Positions 12,954 through 63,914 of a stretch of 64,000 nucleotides of DNA are shown here, in pieces (within the stretch, counting starts at the first letter, position 1; the number at the start of each line of letters is the position of its first letter). Both the position numbers and the translations under genes were made by a program. Below the pieces are notes generated by a model. That model was given only the letters and a program-made list of their open reading frames with translations. It made no database searches and was not told where the DNA came from. Location: contig CAZZCT010000001.1 of NCBI GenBank assembly GCA_964652365.1, positions 1,593-65,592 on the forward strand. The letters run 5' to 3'. The DNA comes from an uncultured Lentisphaerales bacterium (GTDB lineage: Bacteria; Verrucomicrobiota; Kiritimatiellia; RFP12; CAZZCT01).

Positions 12954-12987
12954 GCAATCTATTCCTGAGGTCCTGGCACAAGATCCC

Positions 12988-13100
12988 TTGTGCGGGCAGA
13001 GGGTTCAGGGTTCGGGGTTCAGGATGCGATTCCCGCCTGAACCCTGACACCCTGAACCCTGTTTCCGGGCTCTTACAGGGGTTATGCAAGAGCCGCTCAG
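12988..13100. repeat. nested-palindrome repeat element built on GGGTTCR heptamers, copy A
   Basis: Central hairpin GGGTTCAGGGTTCGGGGTTCAGG / CCTGAACCCTGACACCCTGAACCC. The reverse complement of 58920..59030 matches it with only a handful of mismatches over the ~75-nt core. Overlaps the 3' end of the GH29 gene. Confidence 0.75.
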
Positions 13101-27294: not shown

Positions 27295-27327
27295 TTCACC
27301 ACGAAGAACGCGAAGAGCACGAAGCAA
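27295..27327. repeat. triple-hexamer repeat unit, CTTCGYG type (reverse complement: TTG-CTTCGTG-CT-CTTCGCG-TT-CTTCGTG-GTGAA)
   Basis: Read directly. Same architecture as the TTGGCG units at 34355..35077 but with a different hexamer. Lies at the edge of the TA islet. Confidence 0.6.
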
Positions 27328-27504
27328 CAGCGGAAGTCAGGCGGACCCTCGCTGCATGCGGCGGAATACCGCCGCGGGAGTATCGAGTTCCAACTGCAAC
27401 TGGTTGGGCCAGACTCAGCTTCGACCCCGCGCCGCGAACCTCGATCGCGGGTAATTTCTTGCGTTCGACCGACTGTCGCGACGAAATGCAGCCAGGAAAC
27501 ATTT

Positions 27505-33300: not shown

Positions 33301-34254
33301 GTATCCGTCGGCGTCCACGGCAAAACGGATCGACTTGAACCCTTCCGGCTCGCGGCTCTTGACCAGCCCGGTCCAATCCACGGCCGGCACGCCGTCAACC
33401 ATGCGTACGGCGAACTCGCGACCGTCACGCAGCCGCACCGGCCGTAGCGCTGTCTGACCCTTGGAGGCGAGCGTCGCAAAGCCCCAGCAATTCGGGGCCT
33501 GAAAGGTGAACACGCGGTCAATGCCGACAGCCGGCCGGAAAATATCCTTGATGGTCAGGCGCGTGCCGGCGCCCGTGAGAAAGTTGGGTTCGAGCGTCAG
33601 CACAATCCTGGCGCCGGCGGTCGGCTTCCAGCCATCCCGCGAGAGCAACTCCCACGGAATCGACAGCTCCTGCGTGTAGCCGCGTTTGTCTTCCCAGACT
33701 GCGAAGGTCTGCTTGCCACCCTTCTCCTTGGATTCAACACTCCCCTCGTTGAACTTCTGGCCCCAGTCGATCTTGAGCGTATCCAGCCCGTCGCGGTCAC
33801 GCCAGGCGGTGATGTGGCTGGTGCGGGTGCCGGGATGGTCCGGTCCCGGGTCCTGCTGCGGACTGCCGCGCGTGGCAGCCGCCGCCAGCTTGTCGGCGGG
33901 CGCCGTGAGCGTGCGGAACTGCAGGCAGTCGCCACTGAAACCGTAGTCGCCGCGAATGCTTCCAGGGTGATTGAGAGGTGTGAGGTCCATCCACCGTGCC
34001 AGAATGTAGAGATTGTCGGCGTCCCACATGGCGTGGAACCAGGTGCCGTACTTGTCGCGCTGGTTCTCGACGTCGCCGCAGGCAAAAATGCCGCCGGAGA
34101 GGTCCCAGTCATCGCTCTTCGCGTCGACCGTCACCTGGCCCGGAGCGGGCAGTACCTGAAAATCCTGGTTCTCGGTCTCGGTGGACCGAACACCGGCCGC
34201 CAGCATCAGTACCAGGGCCAGCCAGGCAACGCGTATGTGCTCACGTGATCTCAT
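30340..34254 (-). CDS. giant secreted protein: CBM9-like / FlgD-type Ig / NHL-like propeller / CBM9-like (paralog of 7118..10996)
   Basis: ATG at 34254 (GGGAG upstream) gives MRSREHIRVAWLALVLMLAAGVRS. Motifs: VTVDAKSDDWD..AMWDADNLYILARW, GDFTWAGIWH, DPDGEIYCGIRGD and DSQGQLWVTEQD, C-terminus ..RSYWANLSTGLVSDEVEE..PRNWG. Confidence 0.8.
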   Translation of the reverse strand: MRSREHIRVAWLALVLMLAAGVRSTETENQDFQVLPAPGQVTVDAKSDDWDLSGGIFACGDVENQRDKYGTWFHAMWDADNLYILARWMDLTPLNHPGSIRGDYGFSGDCLQFRTLTAPADKLAAAATRGSPQQDPGPDHPGTRTSHITAWRDRDGLDTLKIDWGQKFNEGSVESKEKGGKQTFAVWEDKRGYTQELSIPWELLSRDGWKPTAGARIVLTLEPNFLTGAGTRLTIKDIFRPAVGIDRVFTFQAPNCWGFATLASKGQTALRPVRLRDGREFAVRMVDGVPAVDWTGLVKSREPEGFKSIRFAVDADGYVSLNVFRADGTVARQLLTSAFYPKGSHEVRWDGLGTTSVNVPGQPLEAGDFTWAGIWHPGVTLALRGWAGSSSETPWGNVWGADHGDPCAVAADGERVYVGWAGGEGAKPLLACTPEGKILWKQIRGGIATASLVAAEAGTVYVWNEHGQYAPRSLYRVDAKTGGYSVWEGTDATDLSMAQVFAGDAEVPERPDSLTAGRGMVFMGFGGRGLVAVVDAKSGKTLRKLAVPKVGDIELGPDGMLYAMSEARKVLAVDPQSGAIREVGAVPLEGKDWVSSIAVDPDGEIYCGIRGDHHYVQVLGKDGKLTRTIGVKAGRRLAGLWQPEGMLHVSALAIDSQGQLWVTEQDGLPRRVSVWNAKTGAFAKEFFGSSTYGALGAAINPVDPCLMVGQGCEWRIDQKTGQATVLGTLDRNGMMASRFGFGPGGRLYVAVTPAFLHAGGAIRIFEKIRDGEWKLRTRLEQTEKDKQKLVEVWADANDDVREQPEEVTSYPNDLGGWIQGWYMAITPDLTCYGGMKQIKVTGWTKCGAPLYDLGQAKLLPAPSDAGYRGGMGAQRNAGSADNRFVLWNGGYGEDHMTLDCYEIASGKKMWSYPSNFTGVHGSHRACPPEVGMIRGAYDICGSVTLPPPIGNIWVIPTNKGEWHALTEQGYYLTKFWEGDPMKVEFPDKAVPGTDCTRCPPGAGEEAFGGSVTLGKDGVFSIQGGHTSFWNMHVQGLEKAQALAGGKLALSAADVETAKAYRQRYLTAQEGGRKLEIAQAKPAFSGDIEKDFGAKAIKDFSRQDNAKVRSAFAWDQANLYVAWHVMDDTPWVNGADAPEFLYARGDTVDLQLATNAKADANRDKAELGDLRLSIGPFQGKPTAVLYRRVVAQESDKKPMKFSSGVYRDGVWMESVTFPQTVTLQVKLADDKKGYVVEAAIPWSLLGTTPAAGLALRGDVGATHGNKAGNDTVLRSYWANLSTGLVSDEVEELMMVPRNWGELALK

Positions 34255-34294
34255 CGCATGCTCCCGTTTGTACCGGTGACGCAGCCACTGCGCA

Positions 34295-34325
34295 CCAGTC
34301 ACTATACATTGCGTGTATATCATGT
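34295..34325 (-). promoter_or_regulatory. candidate operator/promoter: + strand CCAGTCACTATACATTGCGTGTATATCATG (inverted repeat TATACA-N5-TGTATA)
   Basis: AT-rich island 41-71 nt upstream of the 34254 ATG. Matches 44616..44646 as CCAGTYACTATACA-N6-GTATAWCAT. In gene sense it contains a TATAGT -10-like hexamer. Confidence 0.4.
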
Positions 34326-34354
34326 TGGGCAGGTGTGATGCAAACAGATAAGTC

Positions 34355-34387
34355 AACCTTGGCGCGCTTGGCGTCTTGGCGGTTCAA
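34355..34387 (+). repeat. triple-TTGGCG repeat unit c1 (AACC-TTGGCG-CGC-TTGGCG-TC-TTGGCG-GTTCAA)
   Basis: Read directly. Near-identical direct copy at 35041..35077. Confidence 0.8.
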
Positions 34388-34490
34388 TAGAGATGATTTG
34401 ACATGGCTCGAAAAGGGAAACCGGTCTAACCTGGATCCGCGCGTCCGGGTCGATGCACCGGAGAAGAACTACCACGCAGTATTAAGCAGG

Positions 34491-34521
34491 TAACCGCCAA
34501 GACGCCAAGGACGCCAAGGGG
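34491..34521 (-). repeat. triple-TTGGCG repeat unit c2 (inverted)
   Basis: Its reverse complement CCCCTTGGCGTCCTTGGCGTCTTGGCGGTTA differs from c3 at 2 of the first 30 positions. Overlaps the SD region of the GxxExxY gene. Confidence 0.8.
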
Positions 34522-34533
34522 AGGAGAGGGACG

Positions 34534-34965
34534 ATGAGAGAGCCGGACAGAGAGCTTGATGATTTGGCCAATGCCGCGATTGGGGCCGCGATTGAAGTGC
34601 ATCGCGTCCTGGGCCCCGGGTACCTGGAAAGCGTCTATGAAGAGGCGTTGGCCGTCGCGATGGAACTTCGAGGTCTGCCCTTTGAGAGGCAGAAACCCAT
34701 GGGCGTGGACTACAAAGGCCGTGCGGTCGGCCAAGGGCGACTGGACCTGTTGGTCGGCGGAAAGCTGATCGTTGAACTCAAGGCTGTTGATGCCCTTGCG
34801 CCGATTCACACCGCGCAGGTCATGTCCTATCTCAAGACCTTGAAACTCCCGCTCGGACTTCTGATGAACTTCAACGTCCCGCTTCTGAAACATGGCATCA
34901 AACGCGTCGTGCTTTCTTGCCCCCTTGGCGATCTTGGCGTCTTGGCGGTTCAACCTGGGAAGTAG
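34534..34965 (+). CDS. GxxExxY-family protein (PD-(D/E)XK nuclease-like)
   Basis: AAIEVHRVLGPGYLESVYEEALAVAMELRG..GRLDLLVGGKLIVELKAV..QVMSYLK matches the GxxExxY family pattern. GGGGAGGAGAGGG precedes the ATG. The last 14 residues (PLGDLGVLAVQPGK) are encoded by repeat c3. Confidence 0.85.
   Translation: MREPDRELDDLANAAIGAAIEVHRVLGPGYLESVYEEALAVAMELRGLPFERQKPMGVDYKGRAVGQGRLDLLVGGKLIVELKAVDALAPIHTAQVMSYLKTLKLPLGLLMNFNVPLLKHGIKRVVLSCPLGDLGVLAVQPGK
34921..34955 (+). repeat. triple-TTGGCG repeat unit c3
   Basis: CCCC-TTGGCG-ATC-TTGGCG-TC-TTGGCG-GTTCAACC. Inverted partner of c2 across the GxxExxY gene. Confidence 0.8.
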
Positions 34966-34978
34966 ATCAGACACCAGA

Positions 34979-35012
34979 GGCCAACCTCCAAGACGCCAAG
35001 GACGCCAAGAAG
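34979..35012 (-). repeat. triple-TTGGCG repeat unit c4 (inverted, third hexamer TTGGAG)
   Basis: Reverse complement CTTC-TTGGCG-TCC-TTGGCG-TC-TTGGAG-GTTGGCC. Lies 23 nt after c3. Confidence 0.75.
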
Positions 35013-35040
35013 ACGTGGTGCTGTCTCGCTGAAAGCACAA

Positions 35041-35077
35041 AACCCTTGGCGCGCTGGGCGTCTTGGCGGTTCAACCC
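35041..35077 (+). repeat. triple-TTGGCG repeat unit c5 (direct copy of c1)
   Basis: AACCC-TTGGCG-CGC-TGGGCG-TC-TTGGCG-GTTCAACCC. Ends 17 nt before the stop of the SGNH gene. Confidence 0.8.
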
Positions 35078-35094
35078 TCTCCCGGAGGACCGTT

Positions 35095-36339
35095 CTACGG
35101 CTTCGCGACGCACCAGACGGCCGGCTTCTCGCCGCCGGCTACGCAAATGCTTTCGATGTGCAGTTCCTGTTTGGCATCGGCCACGTGCACCGGCTCGATG
35201 CGCAACACGTGCTCGACGACCGGGTCCAGGCCGGTCGCCAGGATCTCGTTCAGATGCACGGTGCCGCCCATGCGCTTGCCGAGCGAGCCGCCGTCGAACA
35301 GCTCGGGGGCTGGATCATCGGCCTTGGCGTTGCTCCGCTTGCATGGCTGACCGTCGATGAACACGCGGTACTGGCAGCCCTTTGTCACGGACTCACCGAA
35401 CAGCATCACCATGCTCCCGCGGAAGTGCGCCTCGAACGGAGCGCCCTCGGGCGAGGGGGTCCCCACCGTAACATCATCCAGCCAGCGCGACATCTGCATG
35501 TCGAAGACCGGCGAGGTCACGCTAGCCCGAGCCGGCGCCCAGCCCTTCGGCAGGGGCGTGAGCGACGAGAGGCGCACGCGGGCGCTGCGCAGGTAGGTGT
35601 CGGCGGTCACCATCTTCTCGGTCACCGTGCAAATGCGCTTCTCGCGGACGGCCAGCTGGAATCCGTCCCAAGCCGCGTCGGCAAACTGCACGTACCCGGC
35701 GTCGCCGGGGTGGACGCCATCGAATGGCCAGAGGTCGGCGATCGTGACTGTGCCCGCCTTGACGCGCTCGAAGATCAGAGCCACGGCATCGCCCAAGCCC
35801 GTGCGATAGGCCTGGGACAACTCGATGTGCTTCACGCGCCGCTGGAAATCGTCGATGGTCGTGCGCTTCTCGACGTTCCACTTGAACGGGAAGATCACCT
35901 GTACCACCGGCGCCCCGGCCAGCACAATCCGGCGGATGAGCGCCTCGTACGAGGCCATGTTCTCAGGGGTCGCCCATTCGATGCCGTCGTTGGCCGTGAA
36001 GTCGAGAAACACCAGGTCCGGCTTGTGGCGCAACACGTCGCGCTCGAGCCGGAACACGCCCAGTTGCGAGCCGGTCCCGCCGATCGCGGCATCGCGGAAG
36101 GTGAAGTGTGCCTTCGGATAGGCCACCTCCAAACGCTGGCCCAGCAGCGCGCGACAGGAGGTCCATCCCTGGTCCGAGGCGTTCGCACCCCAGGTCAGCG
36201 AAGCCCCGAAGAACACCACGTTCAGGCGCTCGCCCGCATTGGCACGCCGATCGAACTCGGCGAACGAGGGCTCGCCAGCCGCGACGGCCACGGCACCACA
36301 CACACAACCCGCCAGACACACACCTGCCAGAACCTGCAT
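35095..36339 (-). CDS. SGNH-family hydrolase (carbohydrate-esterase-like), probable lipoprotein, with C-terminal beta-sandwich-like extension
   Basis: NVVFFGASLTWG (block I variant), DLVFLDFTANDG, FDGVHPGDAGY. The ATG at 36339 has GAAGGA 8 nt upstream and gives MQVLAGVCLAGC with an LAGC lipobox. Alternative starts at 36348 and 36357. Confidence 0.75.
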   Translation of the reverse strand: MQVLAGVCLAGCVCGAVAVAAGEPSFAEFDRRANAGERLNVVFFGASLTWGANASDQGWTSCRALLGQRLEVAYPKAHFTFRDAAIGGTGSQLGVFRLERDVLRHKPDLVFLDFTANDGIEWATPENMASYEALIRRIVLAGAPVVQVIFPFKWNVEKRTTIDDFQRRVKHIELSQAYRTGLGDAVALIFERVKAGTVTIADLWPFDGVHPGDAGYVQFADAAWDGFQLAVREKRICTVTEKMVTADTYLRSARVRLSSLTPLPKGWAPARASVTSPVFDMQMSRWLDDVTVGTPSPEGAPFEAHFRGSMVMLFGESVTKGCQYRVFIDGQPCKRSNAKADDPAPELFDGGSLGKRMGGTVHLNEILATGLDPVVEHVLRIEPVHVADAKQELHIESICVAGGEKPAVWCVAKP

Positions 36340-36381
36340 ATCGATCATCCTTCGCAACGGCGGGCATCAACCCGCAACCCA

Positions 36382-36438
36382 ACGTGGCACGGGCTTCCAG
36401 CCCCGTAGCCGGCGACGGGCTGGAAGCCCGTGCCACGT
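36382..36438. terminator. 57-nt near-perfect palindrome (22 bp + bulge + 2 bp stem, 8-nt loop), REP-like or terminator
   Basis: ACGTGGCACGGGCTTCCAGCCCCGT-AGCCGGCG-ACGGGCTGGAAGCCCGTGCCACGT. Lies 24 nt downstream of the PA14 gene stop (36462) and upstream of the SGNH gene. Confidence 0.5.
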
Positions 36439-36461
36439 CGGTGGGCGCCAGCCTCTCCCTG

Positions 36462-44615: not shown

Positions 44616-44646
44616 CCAGTTACTATACACGCAACGTATAACATTC
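44616..44646 (-). promoter_or_regulatory. candidate autoregulatory operator/promoter: + strand CCAGTTACTATACACGCAACGTATAACATT
   Basis: Shares CCAGTYACTATACA-N6-GTATAWCAT with 34295..34325. In gene sense, TATAGT is followed by 7 nt and then the ATG. Confidence 0.4.
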
Positions 44647-44690: not shown

Positions 44691-44720
44691 GTTGGAATGG
44701 TGGAATGCTGGAATCGTGGA
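44691..44720 (+). repeat. triple-hexamer repeat unit, TGGAATS type (GT-TGGAATG-G-TGGAATG-C-TGGAATC-GTGGA)
   Basis: Read directly. The inverted partner is at 44871..44901. Confidence 0.75.
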
Positions 44721-44870
44721 CGGCTGTGTGCTGAATCCTGCAACCCCACACGAAGTCGTGCACAGCAAGGCCCTCTGTGGGGGGACGCAGGCTGCTCGCG
44801 TTCCATCCATGCCATGGTGATGTTTGTTGAACAGCAAATCGCAGGCAATTGGACTGTCTGATGGGCCATT

Positions 44871-44901
44871 TCCCAACATTCCAGCATTCCAGTATTCCAT
44901 C
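44871..44901 (-). repeat. triple-hexamer repeat unit, TGGAATS type (inverted)
   Basis: Reverse complement GA-TGGAATA-C-TGGAATG-C-TGGAATG-TTGGGA. Lies 150 nt from its partner and ~80 nt upstream of the antitoxin ATG. Confidence 0.75.
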
Positions 44902-58550: not shown

Positions 58551-58919
58551 GTTGCCTCTCAGGTTTCAGCCCTCTCAAGCGACACGGCCGCACGGTTTAG
58601 ACAAAACAGCCCCGCATGTCAACCGCTAACCACTGCCAAGGCCGCCAGTGGACAGCCGGCAAGCCACCCGCGCGCCGCCGGGACGGCACGGGTCCGGTTA
58701 GCCCGCCGGCCAGCCACGGTCATCCGCCGCGCCGGGACCGCCACCCGGCCGAAGAGCGCAGGCACGAAAGAAGAGATTATAGGCCCTAACCATGCCCTCA
58801 CGCCACCCCAAACAATGCCCGTCGGGCCGCCATGCTCCGGAGGGTCCGGAGACCTGTTCCGTCCCGACCGCCAGAGCGCTCCGCATTTGACCCTGATGGA
58901 CTGGTTTGGTATCATTTTC

Positions 58920-59030
58920 CTGAGGCTCGTGCAGGACCCCTGCAAGAGCCGGGAAACAGGGTTCAGGGTGTCAGGGTTCAGGTGGAAATCGCATCCTGAA
59001 CCCCGAACCCTGACCCCTCCGCTTGCACAA
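58920..59030. repeat. nested-palindrome GGGTTCR-heptamer repeat element, copy B (inverted relative to copy A)
   Basis: Its reverse complement aligns with 12988..13100 from TTGTGC.. to ..GAGCC-CTCAG. Intergenic between fabH and the trypsin-fold gene. Confidence 0.75.
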
Positions 59031-59065
59031 ACCGGAGGTTTTGCAGGCGCCTCACCTATTAGACG

Positions 59066-63092: not shown

Positions 63093-63125
63093 GAAGAGCA
63101 TGGGGACAAAGAGCATGGGGACAGG
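63093..63125. repeat. tandem 2 x AGAGCATGGGGACA (15-nt period)
   Basis: Read directly. Lies between the GH94 stop and the REP cluster. Confidence 0.7.
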
Positions 63126-63150
63126 CAAACAGAACGACTAACTGCGTCGT

Positions 63151-63281
63151 CTCGGCATTCGTAGCCGCCGGCGCCAGCCGGTGGATCATCCCGGCGTCCA
63201 GACCCCATCCACGCGCTGGCGCGCGCGGCTACTGGACCGCGTTGCCTCGGCACCCGTAGCCGCCGGCGCCAGCCGGTGGAT
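63151..63281. repeat. REP cluster upstream of the RayT gene: a-type CTCGGCAYYCGTAGCCGCCGGCGCCAGCCGGTGGAT at 63151..63186 and 63246..63281, inverted b-type ATCCACGCGCTGGCGCGCGCGGCTAC at 63207..63232
   Basis: Two direct copies 95 nt apart with an imperfect inverted partner between them, read directly. Confidence 0.8.
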
Positions 63282-63329
63282 ATCTTGAACGATTGCATCC
63301 TGCAGATTCCGGGGGTAGCATTCCCCATC

Positions 63330-63914
63330 ATGCATTCGATACCCGCGCTGGAATGGCGGAAAGGCACGCTGCCTCGCCTCGCCCCCGAGTACTACCGGGG
63401 TCATGCCTTTGTCTTCTGGACGCATACCATCGAGCAGCGCTGCAAGGACTGGCTTTCACCGTCGTTTTACGCGTGCTTCCGCGAGCTGCTGCTGCATGCC
63501 CTTGCGCGCTACGAGCTCGCCTGCCCAATCTACTGCCTGATGCCGGACCACATCCACCTCGTATGGTTGGGCTTGTCCCCTGCCAGCGATCAGCAGCGCG
63601 CAAGCCAGTTCCTCAGGCAGCACGTGGGACCCTCACTTCTCCCCGCAGCATTTCAGAAGCAGCCGCATGATCACGTCCTGCGGGAGAAGGAACGCGAGCG
63701 CAACGCCTTCCAGAGCACGTGCTACTACGTCCGTGAGAATCCCGTCAGGGCTGGACTGGCCGCCGCATGGGCCGACTACCGTTACAGCGATGCCGTTGTC
63801 CCCGGCTATCCGGAACTCAACGTCCGTGCCGAAGATTTCTGGATACGGTTCTGGCGCGTCTATGCCTATGTGCGCCAACGTAACGAGGGCAAAGCCCTGC
63901 CGCCCCATCCGTAG
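63330..63914 (+). CDS. REP-associated tyrosine transposase (RayT, IS200/IS605 Y1 HUH family)
   Basis: HUH motif in CLMPDHIHLVW and a catalytic-Tyr region CYYVRENPVRAGL. Flanked on both sides by REP copies. The start is uncertain (63276 or 63330). Confidence 0.8.
   Translation: MHSIPALEWRKGTLPRLAPEYYRGHAFVFWTHTIEQRCKDWLSPSFYACFRELLLHALARYELACPIYCLMPDHIHLVWLGLSPASDQQRASQFLRQHVGPSLLPAAFQKQPHDHVLREKERERNAFQSTCYYVRENPVRAGLAAAWADYRYSDAVVPGYPELNVRAEDFWIRFWRVYAYVRQRNEGKALPPHP

Follow-up and report, generated by a model that had tools for sequence, protein, structure and literature searches.

The locus examined here raises the question of whether a small nuclease gene and the repeats that surround it form a single element that is specified by its structure. 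The window, which is the whole stretch of 64,000 nucleotides that was analyzed from contig CAZZCT010000001.1 of an uncultured Lentisphaerales bacterium, contains at 34358-35074 a block of five tandem-heptamer repeat units, two of which enclose a gene for a GxxExxY protein. The original prediction, which was made from the letters alone, held that the architecture of such units is conserved while their sequence varies and their partners stay complementary. The analysis described below indicates that the block is probably a selfish and horizontally mobile gene-in-a-hairpin cassette, similar in type to the intervening sequences (IVSs) of ribosomal RNA (rRNA), but located outside rRNA and carrying a GxxExxY nuclease.

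The repeat unit can be written as CTTGGCG-NN-CTTGGCG-N-CTTGGCG-GTT(CAA), and five copies are present within 34340-35080, three on the plus strand and two inverted. The full unit pattern gave four matches at three or fewer mismatches in the 64-kb window, compared with 0.00 expected from 100 shuffles, and the two-hexamer core gave five matches compared with 0.81 expected, all of them inside the block and none elsewhere in the 64 kb. The five units had been predicted at 34355-35077, and all were found at essentially those coordinates. The triple repeat that had been described also stood, but heptamers of the sequence CTTGGCG with spacers of 2 and 1 nt fit the units better than the proposed hexamers with spacers of 3 and 2 nt.

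Three parts make up the block: c1 is a solo arm, c2-gene-c3 is the canonical cassette, and c4-c5 is an empty hairpin. The solo arm, c1 (34358-34387, plus strand, CTTGGCGCGCTTGGCGTCTTGGCGGTTCAA), is of the 3′ type, with its unit at 34358-34384 followed by CAA. A spacer of approximately 105 nt (34388-34491) separates it from c2; this spacer has no recognizable remnant of a GxxExxY or four-helix-bundle gene, and it could contain the cassette's own promoter. The inverted copy c2 (34492-34520, AACCGCCAAGACGCCAAGGACGCCAAGGG, with its unit at 34492-34518) is the 5′ arm on the gene strand and continues into the Shine-Dalgarno tract GGAGGAGAGG, the purine-rich Shine-Dalgarno sequence that abuts the arm being CGCCAAGGGGAGGAGAGGGACGATG. 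Its partner, c3 (34924-34953, plus strand, CTTGGCGATCTTGGCGTCTTGGCGGTTCAA), is the 3′ arm that pairs with c2, and its unit at 34924-34950 is likewise followed by CAA. The two are 30-nt inverted copies with a complementarity of 93% and a separation of 399 nt, and the only open reading frame (ORF) that they enclose is the one at 34534-34965. The predictions that c2 and c3 bracket exactly one gene, that c2 lies at its Shine-Dalgarno region, and that c3 codes for the last residues of the ORF were all borne out by the sequence. Downstream, c4 (34983-35009, inverted, 5′ type) is the first half of a gene-free hairpin with c5 (35045-35074, plus strand, 3′ type, unit at 35045-35071 and then CAA), from which it is separated by a 35-nt loop. 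The c1 and c5 copies have a CGC spacer in common and are mutually the closest copies in the block, in agreement with their predicted near-identity. They do not delimit the insert as had been proposed, since the insert runs approximately 100 nt past c1 and 17-20 nt past c5.

On folding, c2 and c3 are predicted to form a stable stem of approximately 30 bp, and the canonical unit would thus be a stem that encloses both the ribosome binding site and a nuclease gene of approximately 125 codons. The c4/c5 pair folds as RNA at −53.5 kcal/mol (z score −4.5), and pairing of c3 with c4 (−49.8 kcal/mol, z score −4.9) is an alternative to it. Folding c1 and c2 together gave a result no better than shuffles. 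No sigma-70 consensus or intrinsic terminator was found in the block, no U-tract or terminator-like site was found at the arms, and a scan of 33900-35500 against Rfam returned only sub-threshold noise and no rRNA.

Arms of this design accompany GxxExxY genes in other genomes. A metagenome scan using tail-trimmed GxxExxY cores yielded 80 independent loci at 50-75% identity, in which an arm was scored where three CRCNRAG heptamers stood 1-3 nt apart with at most two mismatches; the background of this detector was approximately 3 units per 64 kb in the shuffled window. A 5′ arm was present within 150 nt upstream of the gene in 66 of the 80 loci, where its placement corresponds to that of c2 in the window, a 3′ arm was present within 200 nt downstream in 71, and both were present in 60. 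The gap between the 5′ arm and the gene had a median of 31 nt in the 66 loci with a 5′ arm. When inspected by eye, almost all 80 loci showed (T/G)NAACC and three heptamers, followed by 5-40 nt and the start codon, and then, downstream of the gene, the exact complement ending in GGTT(C)A or GGTGA. The heptamers themselves differ by locus (CGCCAAG, CACAGAG, CGCAGAG, CGCGAAG, CGCAAAG, CACGGAG, CACGAAG, CACAAAG, and CGCTGAG, with the consensus CRCNRAG), and the arms of other loci contain 2-6 units.

The two arms of a locus are matched to each other. Across 62 independent loci, the median arm complementarity was 0.81 within a locus compared with 0.56 between loci, and the majority heptamer was identical in both arms in 47 of the 62, compared with 17% expected. 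RNAalifold was applied to 36 mini-hairpins, each consisting of a 5′ arm, GAAA, and a 3′ arm, and it returned 22 pairs, 14 of which had double compensatory changes; one example of a covarying pair was GC in 21 loci and AU in 15, with zero broken. Of the cells in the alignment, 94.8% were paired, compared with 80.5% in shuffles and 36-48% when the partners were slid by 1-3 columns. Double-change cells numbered 161 compared with 63 in shuffles, and none of 500 shuffles equaled this value. The difference in complementarity within and between loci and the 14 compensatory pairs strongly support the prediction of a structure-specified element, with a fixed architecture, a varying sequence, and complementary partners. 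These comparisons of sequence show selection on the arms to remain complementary as the sequence itself drifts.

The arrangement of arms around the gene is less uniform than their pairing. The majority layout is 5′ arm, gene, 3′ arm; a compact hairpin replaces the 5′ arm in loci L120 and L139-141, and in locus L131 a 3′ arm precedes the gene and a hairpin follows it. The strict layout of nested inverted and direct copies that had been predicted from the window is accordingly not conserved across loci. In L120 (2880-3450; Lentisphaerae, GCA_900198705.1), the compact hairpin lies upstream of the gene, and the 3′ arm forms the protein tail. This cassette interrupts a restriction-modification operon between its N6_N4_Mtase (methyltransferase) gene and its ResIII gene, whose start codon overlaps the arm-extended GxxExxY ORF at its end, and a partial duplication (GATGAACCGTCAAGA / GATGAACCGCCAAGA) is found ahead of the 5′ arm. 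Clusters of extra arms are common around GxxExxY cassettes, and the arms evidently multiply and recombine locally. In locus L149, a 61-nt tandem duplication at 980-1040 contains a complete 3′-type arm and spacer, downstream of a cassette that is 94% identical to that of L143, which demonstrates that arms can multiply locally. L143 and L149 have this cassette in common (94% over 613 nt) in unrelated contexts, and the outer edge of the 5′ arm is the exact point where the similarity starts; they are the single informative pair of cassettes in differing contexts, and only their left junction is readable.

The gene at 34534-34965 (plus strand) encodes a GxxExxY / PDDEXK_3 protein of 143 amino acids, in which the domain occupies residues 10-126 (to approximately 34911) and residues 127-143 result from reading through into c3. 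It matches TIGR04256 (E = 1.5e-41, 141.4 bits against a cut-off of 35) and PF13366 (PDDEXK_3; E = 1.2e-40, 139 bits against a cut-off of 22), and the match to the hidden Markov model (HMM) stops at residue 126. The protein contains GPGYLESVY, and the PD-(D/E)XK residues E32, D71, and E81-x-K83 are present and are invariant in two homologue alignments; the gene thus retains an intact nuclease active site. In an AlphaFold2 model, the core has a mean pLDDT of 89, and the repeat-encoded tail is below 50. A structure search returned only weak and generic PD-(D/E)XK matches, to Cas4 SSO0001 and lambda exonuclease, at a TM of approximately 0.5. An exact look-up of the window protein in the assembly index gave no record, no PDB chain is related to it by sequence, and no transposase family or HUH match was obtained for the 126-residue PD-(D/E)XK core.

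The tail of the protein bears on whether the repeats are conserved as DNA or as coding sequence. In the window, c3 codes for LGDLGVLAVQ, and the last residues of the ORF are PLGDLGVLAVQPGK; a tail of the LG.LG.LAV type is present in approximately 70 of the 120 closest homologues listed. It could be argued from this frequency that the tail is a functional C-terminal peptide, or that the repeats arose by chance or by replication slippage, but the probability of this explanation is close to nil. Zero matches to the full unit are expected by chance, and the reading of the arm as coding sequence is refuted by the frame-independence of the arm DNA and by the complementary arm upstream. Some homologues read the arm DNA in another frame (LGGS...), and some run on into NRQDAK.AK, which is the translated inverted copy; therefore, the arm is conserved at the nucleotide level. 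In other GxxExxY clades, the 3′ arm is placed after the stop codon. The 17-residue tail, which falls beyond the HMM domain and has a disordered conformation in the model, is therefore incidental read-through, and the units are not parts of a longer conserved coding region. One practical consequence is that arms give rise to spurious protein tails or leaders in gene calls, such as LGVLGVLAV, NRQDAKDAK, NHRGTEDTE, and similar sequences.

The block is an insertion. It occupies 840 nt (34255-35094) between the start codon of a minus-strand gene for a 1300-residue protein with a CBM9 domain (start at 34254) and the stop codon (35095-35097) of a minus-strand gene for an SGNH/GDSL hydrolase (35095-36357). 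Orthologues of the hydrolase with 81% and 80% identity were found on four contigs (L126, L127, L128, and L129) from at least two lineages, and on each of these contigs the hydrolase and CBM9 genes share a strand, the second following 12-28 nt after the first, and the site lacks both a GxxExxY gene and a repeat. Because the flanking genes adjoin in these relatives without it, the 840-nt block is an insertion that splits one sugar-degradation operon, to which the nuclease gene is antisense. The figure of 840 nt is the size relative to the empty sites of the relatives, which at approximately 80% amino acid identity are too diverged to define the junctions at the nucleotide level. The predicted presence/absence polymorphism was therefore observed, with the block absent from four related contigs. 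Two further expectations failed: the empty sites carry no repeat copy where one had been anticipated, and the block does not lie between two glycan operons but within what is a single operon in the relatives. No bona fide arm units were found anywhere on the four contigs.

Such insertions can split operons, and in the window lineage the CBM9 gene is now 840 nt away from its former upstream partner and has a newly acquired promoter-like motif. The motif includes the palindrome TATACA-N5-TGTATA, which occurs exactly twice in the window (34303-34319 and 44624-44640) compared with 0.16 expected. At both sites, the palindrome is part of a shared motif of approximately 50 nt (ACCAGTYACTATACA…GTATAWCAT…GATGCAA), a minus-strand gene lies downstream, and a tandem-unit arm is 40-50 nt away. 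The motif probably serves as a promoter or operator. Only in the window lineage, where the insertion severed the CBM9 gene from its operon, does that gene have the motif.

The repeat is found far more widely than the gene. When one genome per species was searched for exact matches to TTGGCG-N3-TTGGCG-N2-TTGGCG, at least 119 loci from at least 10 phyla were obtained, including Planctomycetota, Chloroflexota, Myxococcota (with many copies in Sorangium), Cyanobacteria, Verrucomicrobiota, Gammaproteobacteria, Acidobacteriota, Nitrospirota, Bacteroidota, Armatimonadota, and others. In these loci the heptamers and the GTT(C) that follows are conserved; the spacers between them are free to vary, and the flanking sequences show no relation to one another. 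In many of them, an inverted copy is followed 15-150 nt later by a direct copy, giving a compact hairpin of the form AACCGCCAAG…loop…CTTGGCGGTT. A GxxExxY gene is present in only 3-4 of the 119 among the matches listed, and thus most copies are gene-free, and the idea that the repeat is specific to GxxExxY genes was rejected. A mechanical tally of ORFs that enter the units or start after them in the 119 listed loci was uninformative in GC-rich DNA. When the complementary arm pairs of all the collected loci were considered, the loop lengths were bimodal, with 78 pairs below 150 nt and at least 52 pairs at 300-600 nt. The longer loops contain a GxxExxY gene with one exception, L109 (4624-5289), where the cargo is a 144-residue protein whose N terminus has a hydrophobic segment; no other non-GxxExxY cargo was found in a complementary CRCNRAG pair. 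The L109 protein has no significant Pfam match, the EAD9 match (E = 0.0075) missing the cut-off. In six Sorangium loci (L021, L036, L042, L052, L113, and L118), the sequence is conserved beyond both arms (…GGTTCATTTCTCGCTCGATCAACGTG and …GGTTCGACTTTCTGCTCTTTCGAGCG), and the hairpin there is consequently part of a longer repeated element.

Filled cassettes also cross phylum boundaries. Close homologues of the window gene, with 70-86% identity, come from Lentisphaerota, Nitrospinota, and Nevskiaceae (Gammaproteobacteria), and they share the translated arm. This identity is far too high for vertical descent and argues for horizontal transfer across phyla. Taken with the empty sites, the cassette was inserted between genes in the window lineage, and its design travels with the gene across phyla.

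The organization of the cassette is not without precedent, and the statement in the original prediction that no described system has it was too strong, because ORF-bearing IVSs of 23S rRNA are organized in this way (PMC4990558). The IVS in the 23S rRNA of Coxiella burnetii is a 428-nt selfish element with an S23p ORF in its loop; its 28-bp stem of terminal repeats includes three tandem heptamers (GACAGAT) whose copy number varies between strains, and RNase III cuts it at the first repeat (PMC4990558). The likeness to the window is close: an ORF of approximately 120 codons is held in the loop of a 28-30-bp stem, as c2 and c3 hold a 143-codon ORF, and three tandem heptamers of variable copy number lie beside an AG-rich Shine-Dalgarno sequence. 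In contrast to the IVS, which resides in 23S rRNA (helix 9, 25, or 45), the window element lies between two protein-coding genes of one operon and antisense to them. Its cargo is a PF13366 PD-(D/E)XK nuclease instead of S23p/PF05635, and its heptamer is CRCNRAG with AACC/GGTT ends instead of GACAGAT. Cleavage by RNase III was demonstrated for Coxiella, whereas the window stem is a predicted substrate by analogy. The IVS has been regarded as a selfish element of unknown origin (PMC4990558).

A link between the two is provided by four-helix-bundle genes outside rRNA. The bait used was a four-helix-bundle consensus, and all 120 matches listed are annotated as PF05635/PF22296 "four helix bundle protein." Three of these genes were viewed in context and none was in rRNA; they lie between two epimerase genes, between ORF6N and acetate kinase genes, and between MoxR and DUF58 genes. 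Inverted arms surround all three, and these arms consist of tandem 7-8-nt units. The arms of one contain GTGACAA/GTGACGC repeated 5-6 times, with the unit number differing between near-identical loci; the second has GGGTTCAA-GGAGTCCA-GGATTCGA-GGGGTCAA and its complement, with 88% over 34 nt, and the third has GGATTCGG-GAGTTCAA-GAGTTCAA. Near-identical cassettes in L210, L211, and L212 (330-380) have 5 versus 6 units in the 5′ arm, a slippage-type difference as between Coxiella strains. A search for S23p motifs across the collected loci gave no matches, and seven 23S motifs gave a single match in the collected loci exclusive of the window, an 11-mer in L047. Because four-helix-bundle genes outside rRNA have such arms, the rRNA IVS appears to be a special case, already described, within a broader gene-in-a-hairpin class, and GxxExxY cassettes, four-helix-bundle cassettes, and rRNA IVSs may all be one large family of selfish elements.

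If the block is such a cassette, its life cycle can be outlined by analogy with the Coxiella IVS. Transcription, usually by read-through from the upstream host gene, would allow the stem to form in RNA, where RNase III would cut it. The cut would free the cassette RNA, which would then no longer be coupled to the host transcript, and this release would account for the tolerance of such elements within operons and rRNA. The nuclease would serve the spread or retention of the element by cutting at or near arm-type hairpins, after which recombination or repair would copy the cassette, and the number of units and of extra arms would change by slippage and by recombination between tandem units. Based on crude ORF calling, the upstream neighbor is co-oriented with the gene in 46 of 57 loci and the downstream neighbor in 28 of 48. 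The upstream figure, together with the lack of a promoter consensus in the window block, fits cassettes that mostly lack a promoter and are expressed through read-through. In this respect the window copy belongs to the minority, because its upstream neighbor is divergent and the gene is antisense to the split operon.

Several observations weigh against this interpretation or restrict it. Being antisense to the operon, the window copy has no access to host read-through, and a promoter for it was not found. The empty sites of the relatives lack a hairpin, so this copy was not made by homing into a pre-existing one. The 36 loci of the covariation set were chosen and trimmed by hand out of the 62, and the arm detector assumes the CRCNRAG pattern; it does not force a match between the two arms of a locus. 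Stem mismatches on the sense strand comprise 60 G.U and 57 A.C, and with no excess of G.U nothing marks the pairing constraint as specific to RNA, so that it could operate on DNA. Within an arm, the three heptamers are also kept alike, and positions C1, C3, A6, G7, and the ACC/GGT are invariant. This exceeds what pairing needs and suggests an additional partner with sequence specificity, whose target would be a symmetric structure and possibly DNA; the obvious candidate is the cargo nuclease. When heptamer type was compared with the nuclease tree, the nearest neighbor had the same type in 22 of 62 cases compared with 9.3 expected. A strict co-specificity of heptamer type and nuclease clade was rejected on this result, which represents a weak association only. 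Given this loose link, and the lack of a catalytic motif in the four-helix-bundle cargo, the mobilizer need not be the cargo nuclease. A stronger proposal would make GxxExxY proteins endonucleases with specificity for both structure and sequence, which would recognize the stem of three heptamers (in DNA as a cruciform or hairpin, or in double-stranded RNA) and thereby insert copies of themselves at new sites. It would also unite the gene-bearing cassettes, the rRNA IVSs, the four-helix-bundle cassettes, and the gene-free hairpins, which would number in the thousands across at least 10 phyla, in one hitherto unrecognized mobile super-family with its own transposition or homing chemistry. Taken jointly, these two claims are speculative, and we consider them doubtful.

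Among the alternatives to the gene-in-a-hairpin cassette, one is modeled on repetitive extragenic palindromic (REP) sequences, their hairpin-forming doublets (REPINs), and the REP-associated tyrosine transposases (RAYTs). In this scheme, the gene-free hairpins would be the primary, non-autonomous mobile elements, and GxxExxY would mobilize them in trans while being flanked by its own substrate. REP/RAYT systems likewise consist of a dispersed intergenic repeat whose inverted pairs give hairpins, an enzyme gene flanked by inverted copies, and gene-free copies that are much commoner than gene-bearing ones (PMC3116915, PMC3333891). Correspondingly, empty hairpins far outnumber filled ones among the repeat-selected loci listed, the GxxExxY gene is flanked by inverted copies of a dispersed repeat, its nuclease site is intact, and heptamer type is weakly but significantly tied to protein relatedness. 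We nevertheless regard the scheme as unlikely, because the same arm sequence occurs across many phyla, whereas REP/RAYT pairs are lineage-specific; because all five copies in the 64-kb window are at the locus, with no dispersed TTGGCG copies away from the gene (Sorangium genomes have many); and because non-enzymatic four-helix-bundle genes have the same architecture. Moreover, the cassette enzyme is of the PD-(D/E)XK type and has no HUH or transposase features, unlike the HUH Y1 transposase of RAYTs; a single arm is a direct triple repeat and not a palindrome; and the window's RayT-like ORF has a GTAG-tagged REP set of its own. An explanation in terms of host regulation, in which the stems are terminators, mRNA stabilizers, or protein-binding sites and the gene is among them by chance, draws on the intergenic and gene-free position of most copies, on the stable c3/c4 and c4/c5 hairpins directly after the gene, and on E. 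coli REPs, which are reported to act as elements of the 3′ untranslated region. The absence of the whole block at the orthologous site of the relatives already disfavors it, and it is made improbable by arms that travel with the gene across phyla, that lie approximately 400 nt apart around an ORF in most loci, and that have no U-tract or terminator signature.

Integron cassettes resemble the present ones in having a promoter-less, single small ORF that is expressed from upstream transcription and an imperfect hairpin with AAC...GTT ends. The arms could accordingly be attC-like sites for a tyrosine recombinase encoded elsewhere, with the gene as promoter-less cargo; the outer ends conserve AAC/GTT, each cargo is one small ORF, in most cases oriented like the gene upstream, and in some loci (L120, L131) the gene is flanked by direct copies or lies between compact hairpins. 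This is quite improbable given that the ORF is inside the stem-loop in 60 of the 80 loci and not beside a compact attC. The stem has three equal heptamers and is continuous except for the spacers, with neither the R″-L″/L′-R′ box layout nor conserved bulged or extrahelical bases. The cassettes are single and not arrayed, and no integrase or attI was noticed beside the loci inspected, although no systematic search for integrases was made. Other known systems are similar in part. Insertion sequences and miniature inverted-repeat transposable elements also have terminal inverted repeats, as the arms at the boundary of the shared sequence in L143/L149 would be, but the only ORF here is a PD-(D/E)XK core with no recognized transposase family. 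Free-standing homing endonuclease genes are also minimal nuclease genes that have no further function, are sporadic in distribution, pass from one phylum to another, and insert inside host genes or between them; in contrast to them, the cassettes have no conserved host target gene, their own arms are the only conserved flanks, and the empty site has no arm. The short tandemly repeated repetitive sequences of cyanobacteria and the TAACTGA repeats of Beggiatoaceae are likewise intergenic, with 2-6 tandem 7-nt units in distant phyla (PMC4679880), but they are direct arrays only, whereas the cassette arms are complementary, covarying pairs around a gene or a short loop. The IVS-type cassette thus remains the reading that we consider probable.

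Other tandem-unit elements are present in the window. A solo arm at 27295-27332 (plus strand, TTCACCACGAAGAACGCGAAGAGCACGAAG; TCACC followed by three CACGAAG/CGCGAAG heptamers) lies between the DUF5615 stop codon and the next gene, and no complementary partner was found within 2 kb. It had been predicted as a unit beside the DUF433/DUF5615 pair; it is real, conforms exactly to CRCNRAG, and belongs to that superfamily, but it does not bracket the pair. A three-heptamer AGGGTTC / GAACCCT hairpin at 13000-13061 (z score −7.6) has no gene inside, and a second hairpin of this type is at 58957-59018 (z score −4.7); neither had been listed in the original prediction. The two, within 12960-13100 and 58900-59060, are opposite-orientation copies of a single dispersed element at least 110 nt long, whose likeness runs past the hairpin (…CCCCTGYAAGAGCCGGGAAA-hairpin-…GCACAA), and the mechanical ORF of an alpha-L-fucosidase terminates within the first hairpin, at 13005. 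At 44691-44901, three copies of the octamer TGGAATGN and their complement (TGGAATG) form an inverted pair with a 150-nt loop. The pair itself is real as predicted, but its loop is non-coding, and it lies upstream of the FitA-like/PIN (vapBC) gene pair instead of enclosing it. The AGGGTTC and TGGAATG units have the GGNTTC/GGAATC flavor seen around four-helix-bundle genes, the AGGGTTC type resembling the arms of L213 and L216; no gene remnants were found in the empty loops of the window, and no PF05635-like gene was found in the window.

Three further repeats in the window are of other kinds. A REP-like hairpin at 36379-36441, between the PA14-domain and SGNH hydrolase genes, has 25-nt arms that are 96% complementary and a 13-nt loop (CCAACGTGGCACGGGCTTCCAGCCC / GGGCTGGAAGCCCGTGCCACGTCGG). 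At 63094-63123, just past a gene end, there is a perfect direct repeat of 2 × 15 nt (AAGAGCATGGGGACA) that is not of the arm type; this is the unit that had been predicted beside a RayT gene, which it does not bracket, and it is unrelated to the arms. Three GTAG-tagged REP-like palindromes (GTAGCCGCCGGCGCCAGCCGGTGGAT) in alternating orientation are found at 63141-63281, directly upstream of a 212-residue ORF (63276-63914). This ORF is RayT-like, with HUH (MPDHIHLV) and tyrosine (YYVRENPVRAGL) motifs, and has no Pfam match at E ≤ 0.01.

No description of GxxExxY/PF13366 cassettes outside rRNA was found in the searchable literature, although curators' family notes might mention flanking repeats; the only functional remark found on PF13366 is "unknown, multiple transfers" (PMC3424549). 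GxxExxY and four-helix-bundle genes are among the most abundant small genes of unknown function in environmental genomes, and 7952 of 8000 scored candidates were at E ≤ 1e-10. To our knowledge, the origin and mobility of bacterial rRNA IVSs have been without an explanation since approximately 1990. If all GxxExxY and four-helix-bundle genes are the cargo of one cassette design, then rRNA IVSs would be a special case of a far larger class. If this is true, the class would be open to comparative genomics, through its filled, empty, and absent sites, and to simple biochemistry with RNase III and the nuclease on a 30-bp stem. The finding would then generalize to thousands of genes and make the question of the origin of IVSs a testable one.

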